A DNA stretch of 20,311 bases from NCBI RefSeq assembly GCF_003334335.1, contig NZ_QOWQ01000053.1. One strand, 5' to 3'. Made by a program: the position numbers and the translations under genes. Positions 6,477 through 20,311 of this stretch are shown here, piece after piece. The number at the start of each line of letters is the position of its first letter. Position 1 is the first letter of the stretch. The notes beneath the pieces were generated by a model. That model saw only the letters and a list, made by a program, of their open reading frames with translations, was not told the origin of the DNA and did no database searches. The stretch comes from Escherichia coli (GTDB lineage: Bacteria > Pseudomonadota > Gammaproteobacteria > Enterobacterales > Enterobacteriaceae).

Positions 6477-6559
6477 GTTGGAACACGATGTTGCACAGGC
6501 TGCGGTGTTGGGCCTGAAAATAGTAAATAAAAGAACCTGCCTCACCAGCAGGTTTTTTT
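6477..6559 (+). ncRNA. Candidate ~80-nt small RNA, or terminated leader of the yehL operon
   Basis: Bounded by the promoter at 6442-6470 and the intrinsic terminator at 6534-6559. It contains a stem-loop caggc/gcctg (6496-6516), then an A/U-rich stretch aaaatagtaaataaaag, then the terminator with a U7 tail. It holds no ORF beyond 9 codons. Confidence 0.3.
6534..6559 (+). terminator. Rho-independent terminator
   Basis: aacctgc (6534-6540), loop ctcacca, gcaggtt (6548-6554), running into T7 (6553-6559). An A-rich tract upstream (aaataaaag) makes it potentially bidirectional. Confidence 0.75.
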
Positions 6560-17237: not shown

Positions 17238-17486
17238 ATGCGTGTTGAGATCTGTATCGCTAAAGAAAAAATCAGCAAAATGCCAAAAGGTTCTGTTTCT
17301 GCCCTGCAGCAAGAAATGCTTCGACGTGTCAGTAAACGTTATGACGATGTGGACGTGATTGTCAGAGCCGCCAACAATGACAGTCTCACCATTTTAAGAG
17401 CTGTAGATAAAGAATCCGCGCACGAATTTGTTCAGGAAACACTGCAGGAAGCCTGGGAAACCGCTGACGACTGGTTTATTCGGTAA
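17238..17486 (+). CDS. DinI-family protein (82 aa), prophage-encoded
   Basis: AGGAGGG lies 5 nt upstream of the ATG. It aligns with E. coli DinI (MR.E..IAK at the N-terminus; [12 protein letters not shown] against LQETWESADDWF at the C-terminus). Confidence 0.88.
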
Positions 17487-17497
17487 ATCTTCTTTAC

Positions 17498-17524
17498 GGG
17501 GAGTTAACTTACTCCCCATTTTTT
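17498..17524 (+). terminator. Rho-independent terminator of the dinI-like gene
   Basis: ggggagt (17498-17504), loop taactt, actcccc (17511-17517), then A+T6. The T-tract overlaps the stop codon of the convergent small ORF. Confidence 0.8.
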
Positions 17525-17651
17525 ATTGCATGATAATTGCAGCAACGGCACAGAGTGTCACCACACCACCCAGCCACACAAACAGCATGAAGCACATTGC
17601 TCCCGCTGTATAACGTTTTCTCCCGTACATACGGCATTTGTCTTTATTCAT
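17523..17651 (-). CDS. Candidate 42-aa single-pass membrane peptide
   Basis: MNKDKCRMYGRKRYTAGAMCFMLFVWLGGVVTLCAVAAIIMQ has a basic N-terminus followed by a ~24-residue hydrophobic helix. AGGGG lies 6 nt upstream of this ATG, and a second ATG sits one codon upstream at 17654. The ORF lies 46 nt downstream of the LuxR-type gene on the same strand. I recognise no family. Confidence 0.3.
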   Translation of the reverse strand: MNKDKCRMYGRKRYTAGAMCFMLFVWLGGVVTLCAVAAIIMQ

Positions 17652-17700: not shown

Positions 17701-18174
17701 TCACTCCGCACACGCAAGATGTTTCACGCTCACACCATACAGCCCGTTTTTCGCCATTCCCGTATACAGAAAGGTATTCACCGTCTTCGTGTGAATGCCC
17801 ATTTCACTGGCAAGGCGACAGGGTCTCGACTGGCGGTAGACGTAGCCAAACATCACCACCATCTCTGACATCGTCAGCGGACGGGCAACGCTGTTATACG
17901 TCCATACACCATTGCGTATGGCATCACTTATCTGCTCACCATCACGGAGTGATTCCGCACCCAGTTGCAGAAAATGCCGTCCCTGGAACATGCAGCGCAT
18001 CAGTCTGCCCAGCAACGTATCACAGATTATCAGCCAGGATTCGTCAAAGTCCGGGATATAACGGCGGTTCTCCGGCAGGAAAAACTCCCTCGCCAGTATC
18101 ACACTGTGTTCCTTCAGTAACGCCTGCAGACCATACTCCAGATAGCGATTCCTGGTAGCCAGAATCACCTTCAT
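17701..18174 (-). CDS. Small LuxR/GerE-type HTH regulator with a degenerate receiver-like N-terminus (157 aa)
   Basis: The C-terminus LTMSEMVVMF...RLASEMGIHTKTVNTFLYTGMAKNGL fits the LuxR/FixJ HTH pattern (LT..E..V......iA.elgIs.kTV..h...i..KLg.). The N-terminus MKVILATRNRY lacks the acidic DD pocket. ATG 18174 has GGAAGG 7 nt upstream, whereas the track start at 18204 has no SD. Confidence 0.75.
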   Translation of the reverse strand: MKVILATRNRYLEYGLQALLKEHSVILAREFFLPENRRYIPDFDESWLIICDTLLGRLMRCMFQGRHFLQLGAESLRDGEQISDAIRNGVWTYNSVARPLTMSEMVVMFGYVYRQSRPCRLASEMGIHTKTVNTFLYTGMAKNGLYGVSVKHLACAE

Positions 18175-18209
18175 CGCAGCACCTTCCTGTTTTTTATGCC
18201 CCATGAAAA

Positions 18210-18238
18210 ACGGCAGACCAGAGTCCTGCGCCTGCCGT
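18210..18238 (-). terminator. Weak terminator/attenuator after the adhesin gene
   Basis: On the - strand acggcag (18238-18232) pairs with ctgccgt (18216-18210) around a 15-nt loop, followed by only TTTT. It sits directly upstream of the LuxR-type gene, so read-through is likely. Confidence 0.35.
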
Positions 18239-18262
18239 CATGCTTCATGTCACTGTCAGCAA

Positions 18263-19336
18263 TTAAAACTCGAAGTTCACACCTACGTTGTAGGAAACAT
18301 CACCGTCGCTGGCCGCAATACCTGCTTTGGCTGCGGTCTGCTCGTTGAAGCGGTAACCCACACCAACAGCCACAGCCTGTTTGTCACTGTAACCACCCAG
18401 GGCTGCCGTGGCGTTGAATTTACCCACACTGTACGGCTGGAACAGACCGGACAGCGCCGCACTCTGTGCTGCCGCACGTTTCATTTCTTCGTGGTTTTCA
18501 CGAATCTGGCGCTGCTGGCTGTTCAGGCGTGCGTTATGCTCCTGCAGCTGGCGGGAGTGATTCTGGATAGCCTGGGTGTTACTGCGGGTTCTGTTGTCGA
18601 GGCTGACAACAGCATCATTCACACGAACGTTGCCCGGTGCGCTCTGGTCAAGTGTATAGCTGCCATCTTTATTCTGATAAATTGTTGTATCTGCTTTCAC
18701 ACCCGCAACAACGCTCTTCACAGATACACTTTCAACACCCTGTCCATCAGTAATTTCACCATTCTCATCAAGGGCAAATGTAGTGGCATTTTTCAGGTCA
18801 TTTACATTTGTGCCGAGACGGTTGAACTCATTCAGTAACCCACCTGTCGAATCCTGTTTAACAGCAGCCAGAGCTGACTCAACACTAACACCGTTGTTAA
18901 TGGCTGTGTTATAAGCCCTTGCTGTTTTTGTTGTAATGGTTTCTGAAACAATATCGATGGTTTCTTTTAGTTTATTTAGTTTTTCCTCTGTTATATTTCC
19001 AATGTTTTCTTTTTTTAGTTCTGGTGCATCAATAGTGTAACGAACAGACTCCAGAAGTGATTGAACCTTATCCTTGTTTTTTATATCATTTACATTTATA
19101 CCATTTACTTTTTTCTTCCACTCATCTCTATTAAACGTTGTAATAGTTCCTGTGACCGTGTTAGCAATAATTCCTTCGCCATTTTTATTTACAATTTTAG
19201 CCATATCACCGTTATTATAAAACTCAACTCTGAAATCACCTCTTGTAAAATTCTCCTGCGCTATAGCACCACCACTCACCAACAACAGACCGGCAACAGC
19301 AGATGAAAGAATAGTCTTTGTAAATTTCTTGCTCAT
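18263..19336 (-). CDS. Trimeric autotransporter adhesin with YadA-type C-terminal anchor, Eib-like (357 aa)
   Basis: The Sec signal peptide [26 protein letters not shown]|QE is followed by a Q/N/R-rich coiled-coil stalk ([37 protein letters not shown]). The C-terminal 4-strand anchor is [63 protein letters not shown], ending in aromatic F. From memory this anchor is very close to the prophage-borne Eib proteins. Confidence 0.9.
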
Positions 19337-19353
19337 GTGGTATACCCTATAAA

Positions 19354-19382
19354 ATTATCTGTATACAAATAAAACAGTTCAA
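19354..19382 (-). promoter_or_regulatory. Candidate sigma70 promoter of the adhesin gene (TTGAAC-17 nt-GATAAT)
   Basis: On the - strand the -35 is ttgaac (19382-19377), the spacer is 17 nt, and the -10 is gataat (19359-19354). The palindrome TGTATACA (19360-19367) lies in the spacer. The ATG is about 18-25 nt downstream of the predicted TSS. Confidence 0.45.
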
Positions 19383-19439
19383 CATCGGATATATAAAGAA
19401 AATCTGATGTCTCGCCGCTCTCATGAGCTTACTCCTGAA

Positions 19440-19477
19440 GAAATTCCGAATTTTAATATGAAGTTTTTCGGAATTTC
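19440..19477. repeat. Perfect 11-bp inverted repeat GAAATTCCGAA / TTCGGAATTTC with a 16-nt spacer
   Basis: The arms are at 19440-19450 and 19467-19477. The repeat lies about 60-100 bp upstream of the adhesin promoter candidate. Confidence 0.75.
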
Positions 19478-19712
19478 CTTACTATAACGTCGGTGATATC
19501 ACGTCCGCGAAGGGGTATCCGCATTACGACTGGCCTGCCACTTATGCTGTCTCTTTATTCATCAACAATTTGTATACGGTTACATCTTTAATTGTGAAGT
19601 TAGTCACAAAAAGAAGAAAGTCAAATAATCAAATTGTGCTTAACTGTTTACATCAGCACAATCTGATAACCATTGAAGGACGCACTAAATTATTTTCAGC
19701 AATCCCTCAGCC

Positions 19713-19729
19713 TACGAAAATTCTGTATT
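19713..19729. repeat. Copy 1 of the exact 17-mer TACGAAAATTCTGTATT
   Basis: It is identical to 19889-19905, which lies 176 bp away. Confidence 0.85.
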
Positions 19730-19882
19730 TGATGATTGTTTTATTTGCTCTCTTTTTATGCAGCCATTCTGTTGCTTATAAAAAAGCACCACTATCTCAT
19801 GTATAATTTCTGGGTCTGTCGTCTCCCCGTTTTTCACTTACAGATGCCGGGCAACATTCAGTTGCCGGAATCAGCAGTTACC

Positions 19883-19909
19883 ATGCAATACGAAAATTCT
19901 GTATTGCAT
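19883..19909. repeat. Copy 2 of the 17-mer, embedded in the perfect 9-bp inverted repeat ATGCAATAC / GTATTGCAT
   Basis: The 17-mer is at 19889-19905. The inverted-repeat arms are at 19883-19891 and 19901-19909 around a 9-nt loop gaaaattct. Confidence 0.85.
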
Positions 19910-19977
19910 CCACGCCCTCATCTCAATATCTTTGTCGCCGGATAAAAATAACTATCAACCACAAGTATCATGCTCTC

Positions 19978-20003
19978 GGGGAGCACGCACTCCCCAGTTT
20001 TTT
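19978..20003 (+). terminator. Rho-independent terminator, + orientation
   Basis: ggggag (19978-19983), loop cacgca, ctcccc (19990-19995), then ag and T6 (19998-20003). On the - strand no T-tract follows the hairpin. Confidence 0.75.
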
Positions 20004-20106
20004 ATCTTTGACAGGGGTGAAGGAGGCCGTTGCATCTCCTTTAATTATCATTGCCAGATTATTTCCTCGACCTGAGTATTCTTTATTTAGCCATAGTTTT
20101 GTAGCA

Positions 20107-20132
20107 AGGGGCTGGAGCGCCCCTCTTTTTTT
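20107..20132 (+). terminator. Rho-independent terminator, + orientation, abutting the stop of the convergent phage gene
   Basis: aggggc (20107-20112), loop tggagc, gcccct (20119-20124), then c and T7 (20126-20132). The last T is part of the - strand stop codon (20132-20134). Confidence 0.7.
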
Positions 20133-20311
20133 CACCTGTCAGCCATGCCGACCTTATACGCCAGTATAGCTTCCGCATCACCCAGCGCTTCAATCTCTTT
20201 TTTCATCGTGCGCTGTCTGACATGAATTTCCAGACCTTTGGTAAACATCGCCTGCTCTGCAGCAGCACTCAGAGCAATCAGTGTTTCAGCGTCCATCGGT
20301 ACGTCATTATT
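20132..20311 (-). CDS. 3' end (59 codons) of a phage gene truncated by the window edge, possibly a tail-fibre-region protein with a DUF4376-like C-terminus
   Basis: The - strand frame is open to the window edge: ...NNDVPMDAETLIALSAAAEQAMFTKGLEIHVRQRTMKKEIEALGDAEAILAYKVGMADR*. The pattern resembles C-terminal domains I associate with phage tail-fibre accessory proteins. That assignment is from memory only. Confidence 0.55.
   Translation of the reverse strand, partial: NNDVPMDAETLIALSAAAEQAMFTKGLEIHVRQRTMKKEIEALGDAEAILAYKVGMADR

Follow-up and report, generated by a model that had tools for sequence, protein, structure and literature searches.

Terminator-like hairpins facing the late operon in the tfa-to-eib spacer of an Escherichia coli lambdoid prophage

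What is the role of the long non-coding DNA that separates the last late gene of some lambdoid prophages from the adhesin gene that follows it? We addressed this question in Escherichia coli (RefSeq assembly GCF_003334335.1, contig NZ_QOWQ01000053.1), in a stretch of 20,311 nt, hereafter the window, whose right end is formed by the distal end of a lambdoid prophage inserted beside btsS/yehU. Homology and synteny identify the locus as the spacer between tfa and eib in Eib-type lambdoid prophages (P-EibA type): it is 99.9% identical to that of phage PhiR5_1 and 97% identical, over 86% of its length, to that of the P-EibA prophage of ECOR-9 (AF151091). An initial annotation had presented it as a candidate locus for prophage small RNAs (sRNAs) of about 190 nt and about 130 nt. 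On balance, we think it probable that the spacer is made of the control region of the adhesin gene and a tandem cluster of backward-facing terminators that closes the tail operon. The elements at the tfa side of the spacer are the following.

19337-20131 (795 bp): the spacer, a non-coding tfa-eib junction with no conserved open reading frame (ORF)
19978-20003, + strand: T1, an intrinsic terminator with a 6-bp stem, a 6-nt loop and T6 (stem 19978-19995, GGGGAG-CACGCA-CTCCCC, then AGTTTTTTAT)
20018-20043, + strand: H3, a hairpin between T1 and T2 with AAGGAG/CTCCTT arms (-9.5 kcal/mol), a weak third candidate for a + strand terminator
20107-20132, + strand: T2, an intrinsic terminator with a T7 run (stem 20107-20124, AGGGGC-TGGAGC-GCCCCT, then CTTTTTTTCA)
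20132-20311, - strand: 3' end of the tail-fibre assembly gene tfa (DUF4376), with its stop codon at 20132-20134; the last gene of the late operon, running past the window edge

The two terminators that the initial annotation had seen here are present, on the + strand alone. Both fit the definition of an intrinsic terminator, a GC-rich hairpin with an immediate U-tract. Under strict criteria (a perfect stem with a minimum of 6 bp and 5 GC pairs, then 6 or more T within the next 9 nt), the spacer holds two terminators, both on the + strand, with no hit on the - strand, and one or more such elements arose in just 1 of 3000 dinucleotide shuffles of the spacer; T1 and T2 are far beyond chance. Their stems are also largely conserved. 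In a comparative set of 61 distinct spacer copies, drawn from IMG/VR, metagenomes, RefSeq genomes and phage records, the T2 stem is intact in 59 of 60 copies and the T1 stem in 48 of 60, while the H3 arms are kept in all copies. The T-run of T2 (20126-20132) shares one base with the tfa stop codon, the complement of 20132-20134. In variant class D, whose T2 stem is among the intact ones, the sequence from T1 to tfa differs by ~25% and both H3 and T2 have acquired new loops, yet the 24 stem positions of these two hairpins are all unchanged (Fisher one-sided p ~0.001, in a post hoc test of a single lineage comparison). These stems were scored by pairwise alignment, since loop indels shifted the register of the MAFFT alignment and made its column counts misleading. 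With its longer stem (GAAGGAGGC / GCCUCCUU), followed by AAAUUUUUAUU, the class D version of H3 looks like a third + strand terminator.

Reverse-facing terminators are general at tfa 3' ends. We surveyed 67 IMG/VR loci (within L074-L153) that encode DUF4376 relatives of tfa and whose downstream sequences form 17 unrelated clusters. In nine of these clusters (53 loci), a hairpin lies 7-13 nt from the tfa stop with its T-run on the strand opposite tfa, and a tenth, the eibG type, was added with a laxer scan, giving a total of 10 of the 17 junction types. Sense-oriented terminators were called in two clusters, both of them bidirectional, and several of the reverse-facing junctions have no adjacent convergent gene. 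An opposite-strand hairpin and T-run at the tfa stop are also found in two tfa-eib-like spacers not homologous to the one studied here (the GER2/JNEC-KY202 type and the eibG type), and such reverse-facing hairpins lie at positions 3949-3979 of L020/L021 and, in the eibG type, 2456-2488 of L072/L073. T2 would then be one case of a general pattern, a recurring terminator that faces the 3' end of the late operon. The initial remark that T2 is placed as if to stop antisense read-in fits what is seen at these many unrelated tfa ends and, because T2-type elements are so common there, T2 needs no sRNA as its explanation.

From the adhesin start codon to T1, the copies differ greatly in how well they preserve each part of the spacer.

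19337-19505, - strand: adhesin promoter and 5' leader block, the sole part of the spacer common to otherwise unrelated eib-like loci (~71% identity)
19506-19716: family-specific conserved non-coding block, in which no 20-nt bin exceeds ~4% differences and most stay within ~1% (~55 copies)
19717-19916: variable, indel-prone patch that contains a TATAAT, the hairpins 19846-19872 and 19883-19910 and the second copy of a 17-nt repeat
19713-19729 and 19889-19905, + strand: perfect 17-nt direct repeat TACGAAAATTCTGTATT, 176 nt apart
19917-19977, + strand: near-invariant block 5' of T1, holding a CA-rich stretch at 19954-19970

Both 19337-19716 and 19917-19996 are almost invariant, although the conservation of 19953-19976 is partly inflated, as the metagenome copies were retrieved with that 24-mer. 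Copies differ by 0.5-3% in 19337-19716, against 12-32% in the adhesin passenger domain, where many copies cannot be aligned. It is tempting to speculate that the conserved tfa end and spacer could serve as a homologous anchor for the exchange of adhesin cassettes. In the variable patch, in contrast, substitutions reach 24% and gaps 32% in a 20-nt bin, and there are two alleles ~25% apart. About a third of the copies, P-EibA included, carry a 111-nt deletion (19797-19907), and one metagenomic copy (L024) lacks exactly the 176 nt between the 17-nt repeats. In the reading we favour, this middle part would be dispensable filler, free to mutate and delete.

Could the spacer encode a protein instead? 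The view that it holds no credible ORF is borne out, since on neither strand is an ORF kept across the variant classes. All spacer ORFs of 25 aa or longer vary from class to class, being broken or fused by an 11-nt duplication, by 4-nt and 2+1-nt indels, by a class D stop codon or by the 111-nt deletion. The ORFs of 78, 69, 47, 53, 55, 41 and 26 aa were rejected as small proteins because they are not conserved between classes; PHROG and Pfam searches with the spacer ORFs gave nothing significant (best E = 0.011, for the 26-aa ORF), and tblastn with the 138-aa fused ORF of copy L007 found matches confined to the same spacer family. A hydrophobic 24-aa ORF at 19732-19806, considered as a type I toxin, was rejected on account of an in-frame stop in class C, the commonest class, in an alignment read by eye. 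A tRNA and tmRNA search of the spacer returned none.

The alternative that comes closest to the initial annotation is that one or more non-coding RNAs (ncRNAs) are made from the + strand and end at T1 and/or T2, working as a regulatory sRNA either in trans or as a cis-antisense RNA to tfa-eib read-through. T1 and T2 are genuine and conserved, the 60 nt before T1 are conserved, A-rich and predicted to be mostly unpaired, the segment 19800-20005 folds with z = -3.9, and any RNA ending at T1 would automatically carry the hairpin and poly-U module typical of Hfq-dependent sRNAs. However, the sole poorly conserved part of the spacer is where the proposed promoter lies, together with the 5'-most two-thirds of the ~190-nt RNA. 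The + strand TATAAT at 19802-19807 exists as a hexamer, but its value as a promoter does not stand: it has no usable -35 and its score in a position-weight scan, 6.4, is within chance (shuffle-null maximum 9.9 +/- 1.6). Among 58 copies, the -10 reads TATAAT in 13 and TATGAC in 26, and in 18 it has been deleted along with the entire 5' part. A sigma-70 promoter scan of both spacer strands gave nothing above the shuffle null; a perfect TTGACA at 20008 has no -10 element, and the T1-T2 interval, which is unstructured (20004-20134, z = +0.2, no better than shuffles), contains no -10 and no convincing promoter for a second RNA of ~130 nt. The three hairpins that had been reported, at 19846-19872, 19883-19910 and 20018-20043, are all present. 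The first (-13.4 kcal/mol) drops to -4.5 or -6.4 kcal/mol in two classes, and the second (-10.2 kcal/mol), whose loop and 3' arm contain the second 17-nt repeat, is weaker in class D and missing from the deletion class; between them, these upstream hairpins are broken in classes B, C and D with no compensation. Because the proposed promoter and both upstream hairpins lie within a variable, indel-prone patch, the sRNA-gene model is unsupported: of the generic marks of an sRNA gene, the terminator is conserved, but the -10 is not and the hairpins are lost without compensating changes.

Comparison with known RNAs points the same way. The spacer has no hit at the gathering threshold of Rfam 15, and at E <= 10 it gives three chance-level hits of 15-20 bits; RefSeq annotations of spacer homologues carry no RNA feature. 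By blastn, the spacer has no homologue in the genomes of enterohaemorrhagic E. coli (EHEC) Sakai (word size 11) or enteropathogenic E. coli (EPEC) E2348/69. These are the strains of the Hfq cross-linking (Hfq-CRAC) and Pas catalogues, which therefore cannot hold this locus. The CA-rich stretch is where the initial annotation had placed it, but the proposed pairing with GcvB finds no backing: its duplex with GcvB R1 (-12.9 kcal/mol, using a GcvB sequence entered by hand) is no better than that of an average 38-mer of the window (-15.1 +/- 4.1 kcal/mol, with 70% doing at least as well), and CACAACA is absent from the spacer. With T2 explained otherwise by the many elements of its kind at tfa ends, we consider an RNA of this sort rather improbable.

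A narrower version, which we regard as quite improbable, would be a family-specific + strand ncRNA that starts in 19506-19716 or at class-specific promoters in the variable patch, ends at T1 with T2 as a back-up, binds Hfq through a module made of the conserved, unpaired A/CA-rich 60 nt ahead of T1 plus the T1 hairpin and U-tail, and controls the adhesin or host targets in lysogens. The conserved block in which such an RNA might begin contains one further element.

19628-19640 / 19655-19667: 13-bp inverted repeat within the 19506-19716 block

An A.C mismatch of this repeat on the + strand becomes a G.U pair on the - strand, and its hairpin is predicted at -11.3 kcal/mol on the + strand and -16.8 kcal/mol on the - strand. 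The spacer element occurs in 27-32 of 5426 complete E. coli genomes, at a median of 3 places per genome, and a + strand RNA, if true, would be an sRNA restricted to a rare prophage family.

The part of the spacer next to the adhesin gene can be assigned with more help from other loci. Distant BLAST matches to the spacer are confined to query positions 2-169, and the blocks GATATCACCGAC, ATCAGATTTTCTTTA and TTTGTATACA are conserved among eib-like upstream regions. In a 2026 study, an eibG deletion was complemented by a clone with 168 bp of upstream sequence, and the claA/claB expression constructs retained this same eibG 168-bp region (PMC13534694). From the identity common to eib-like loci and from the 168-bp eibG clone, the best reading is that the ~170 bp at the adhesin start codon (19337-19505) are the adhesin promoter and leader. 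The initial annotation had allowed that the whole region might prove to be the regulatory region or long 5' untranslated region (UTR) of the adhesin; this fits the proximal ~170 bp only. Two inverted repeats lie in or reach into this part.

19440-19477: perfect 11-bp inverted repeat GAAATTCCGAA-N16-TTCGGAATTTC, at the position of the stem_loop annotated upstream of eibA in AF151091
19361-19370 / 19568-19577: perfect 10-bp inverted repeat GTATACAAAT / ATTTGTATAC, flanking 197 bp (19371-19567) near the adhesin start

The arms of the 11-bp repeat are invariant in the copies examined, with almost all changes in the loop, and the repeat is not conserved in distant eib-like loci. The 197-bp segment was considered as an invertible promoter switch of the fimS kind and rejected, as the ~50 copies that cover it are all collinear and no dedicated recombinase lies close by. 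The spacer has no RfaH ops element (GGCGGTAGNNTG).

It seems very improbable that the entire 0.8 kb serves the adhesin as a regulatory region or long 5' UTR, perhaps silenced by H-NS and furnished with operator palindromes for IbrAB-type or phage regulators, so that the terminator-like hairpins would act as - strand DNA or RNA structures. The adhesin half does fold better on the - strand (19337-19720: -98 kcal/mol, z = -3.6, against -83 kcal/mol, z = -2.6, on the + strand), each hairpin tested is somewhat stabler as - strand RNA, the spacer is AT-rich (33-46% GC) with several palindromes, and the best promoter-like site on the - strand, TTGACT-16-TAACTT, would start transcription at ~19590 and leave a leader of ~250 nt. 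However, this site is within the shuffle null, homology to other eib-like upstream regions ends at ~170 bp, the eibG complementation clone included just 168 bp of upstream sequence, and the middle of the spacer can be deleted. Moreover, the T-runs are on the + strand, hence the hairpins are not - strand terminators. Our literature search on the eib promoter and on H-NS or IbrAB regulation found nothing usable; eib expression is said, after work by Sandt, Hopper and Hill in 2002, to depend on the trans-activators IbrA and IbrB.

How would an adhesin control region followed by backward-facing terminators work? The proximal ~170 bp would drive the adhesin gene, and the tfa-proximal ~160 bp, with T1, H3 and T2, would halt leftward transcription, which runs opposite to the late genes, before it enters the tail genes as antisense. 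In the lysogen, this RNA could come from read-through of the DinI-like gene at the other side of the adhesin or from start sites inside the adhesin's AT-rich control region. After excision, in the circular phage, int/pL-side transcription would cross attP and run in the + direction of the window, passing the DinI-like gene and its terminator (17498), then the adhesin moron in antisense, and then T1, H3 and T2 ahead of tfa. The PhiR5_1 record, which is in prophage order, carries at its far end int, xis and the recombination genes, encoded opposite to the late genes, and at its near end the DinI-like gene, which is oriented like int; from these two orientations, int-side transcription would head towards the cluster in the circular phage. 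We infer that the terminators actually stop transcription, where the + strand transcripts would begin, and that the phage gains in fitness.

Several points weigh against this proposal. Both termination and any transcription of the + strand are putative and, as no + strand promoter rises above the shuffle null, the RNA that the terminators would stop has no assigned start. N-modified transcription from pL ignores intrinsic terminators, so the cluster could act on unmodified polymerases alone. T1 is less constrained than T2: its stem has an uncompensated G-to-T mismatch in 12 of 60 copies, 10 of which also have a downstream A-to-G change, by which the base of the stem gains a C-G pair and a G.U wobble. 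The scan used for the other tfa ends called no canonical terminator at the lambda tfa/ea47 junction. Finally, the proposal gives no account of the high conservation of 19506-19716.

The state of T1 bears also on another explanation, that the distal spacer is a relic in which T1, H3 and T2 were left behind by leftward b-region genes, replaced when eib was inserted, and are now decaying and without function. The topology is that of the lambda b region, where ea47 is convergent on tfa. Much like neutral DNA, the middle patch carries indels, occurs as two divergent alleles and has recombined between the 17-nt repeats, frame-shifted ORF fragments fuse to ORFs of 109-138 aa in some copies, and the T1 stem is damaged in 20% of copies. 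Yet these ORF fragments have no protein or DNA homologue outside the spacer family and their translations are of low complexity, the T2 and H3 stems are retained amid neighbouring bases that have diverged by ~25%, and the conservation of both 19506-19716 and 19917-19996 far surpasses that of the adhesin gene beside them. We therefore see the relic as unlikely, while giving it real weight, and continue to favour terminators that close the tail operon.

If so, the spacer is largely an ordinary intergenic region that combines adhesin control with boundary terminators, and its prophage family was described in 2000. T1 and T2 are like the canonical Rho-independent terminators found in tandem at many operon ends in their GC-rich 6-bp stem, 6-nt loop, run of 6-7 T and strand specificity. 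They differ in that no gene or defined transcript lies upstream on their own strand, and they face the 3' end of the co-directional tfa-eib pair. The closest relative, P-EibA (AF151091; Sandt and Hill 2000), has the same flanking genes (orf-191A/tfa, eibA, orf-156A and orf-60A); it lacks 111 nt (19797-19907), leaves T1 and T2 unannotated and encodes an adhesin of 392 aa, compared with 357 aa in the window.

The initial annotation had drawn its analogy with the anti-sRNA AgvB, and this does not carry over. Like the proposed RNAs, AgvB and AsxR are prophage-borne, non-coding and end at an intrinsic terminator, and the AgvB 5' end is CA-rich (Tree et al. 2014, PMC4104026). However, they are convergent sRNA pairs of 51-60 nt at a moron site 3' of PR', downstream of Q (PMC4104026), while the RNAs proposed here would measure ~190 and 130 nt and the spacer separates tfa, at the late operon's far end, from the eib moron beside attR. 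AgvB and AsxR also own a conserved 3' region of ~42 nt, and AgvB its CACAACA, neither of which is found in the spacer; nor is the spacer homologous to any part of the Sakai genome, which encodes AgvB1/2, AsxR and EcOnc03. In the sense of the lambdoid moron (Juhala et al. 2000, as cited in PMC4104026), eib is an additional unit, expressed autonomously, that lies downstream of the tail genes. T1 and T2 point opposite to it, so they are not the moron's own terminator; a stem-loop is annotated in AF151091 immediately downstream of eibA. A further likeness is with the leftward transcription of the lambda b region (pL-int-sib/tI), as there too int-side transcription, running opposite to the late operon, enters the stretch between tfa and att. 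In lambda, however, sib/tI adjoins att and acts through RNase III retroregulation, whereas T1, H3 and T2 are ~2.7 kb from att, at the tfa boundary.

The finding of reverse-facing terminators at 10 of 17 junction types suggests a design rule, in which the distal end of a lambdoid late operon is insulated from antisense transcription of the moron or b region. Such a rule would aid the annotation of prophage ends and the design of phage-based expression constructs. In addition, separating the ~170 bp that travel with eib-like genes from the family-specific DNA next to them helps work on Eib/Cla regulation in Shiga toxin-producing E. coli (STEC) negative for the enterocyte effacement locus (LEE).

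Around the spacer, the - strand gene order is J, lom, tail fibre, tfa, the 795-bp spacer, the adhesin gene and a 167-aa ORF, beyond which lie the DinI-like gene and the host junction.

18263-19336, - strand: Eib/YadA-type trimeric autotransporter adhesin of 357 aa (Pfam YadA_anchor, E = 1e-15), a moron downstream of the tail genes
17701-18204, - strand: ORF of 167 aa, PHROG 6585 (unknown function; E = 9e-97), at the position of orf-156A in P-EibA
17498-17527, + strand: terminator after the DinI-like gene, GGGGAG-TTAACTTA-CTCCCC-ATTTTTTATT
17238-17486, + strand: DinI-like gene, next to which comes the host junction

The adhesin gene sits where eibA is in P-EibA (AF151091), and its RefSeq homologues are annotated as YadA C-terminal domain proteins. 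A Pfam search with the 167-aa ORF gave no match; its C-terminus resembles, by eye, a helix-turn-helix of the LuxR/GerE type and, if this likeness holds, the ORF would be a candidate local regulator. On the + strand, 18203-18838 holds a 211-aa ORF with an ATG start that runs antisense to the adhesin gene; most probably it is a shadow ORF and no gene.

T1 and the terminator of the DinI-like gene have an identical 6-bp stem, GGGGAG/CTCCCC, in unrelated flanks, for which coincidence or convergence is likelier than duplication. The idea that T1 is a duplicated tfa-end junction was also rejected, as the local alignment of 19940-20106 with 20100-20311 is no better than shuffles, and the T1 region has no significant match among the other tfa junctions. 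The eibG-type spacer has a tandem duplication of ~14 nt (L072/L073 2427-2456), with AGGAATAGTTCATG present twice, immediately ahead of its reverse-facing hairpin; the AGGAGG-ATG arrangement that the duplication includes would encode only 5 codons. The sole Rfam hit of the window at the gathering threshold is a full-length, high-scoring match to the OrzO-P antitoxin sRNA at 6484-6559 on the + strand (RF02083; E = 4e-16, with 101 bits where the gathering score is 60), which, as a family match, implies a zor-orz type I toxin-antitoxin locus in the host part of the window.

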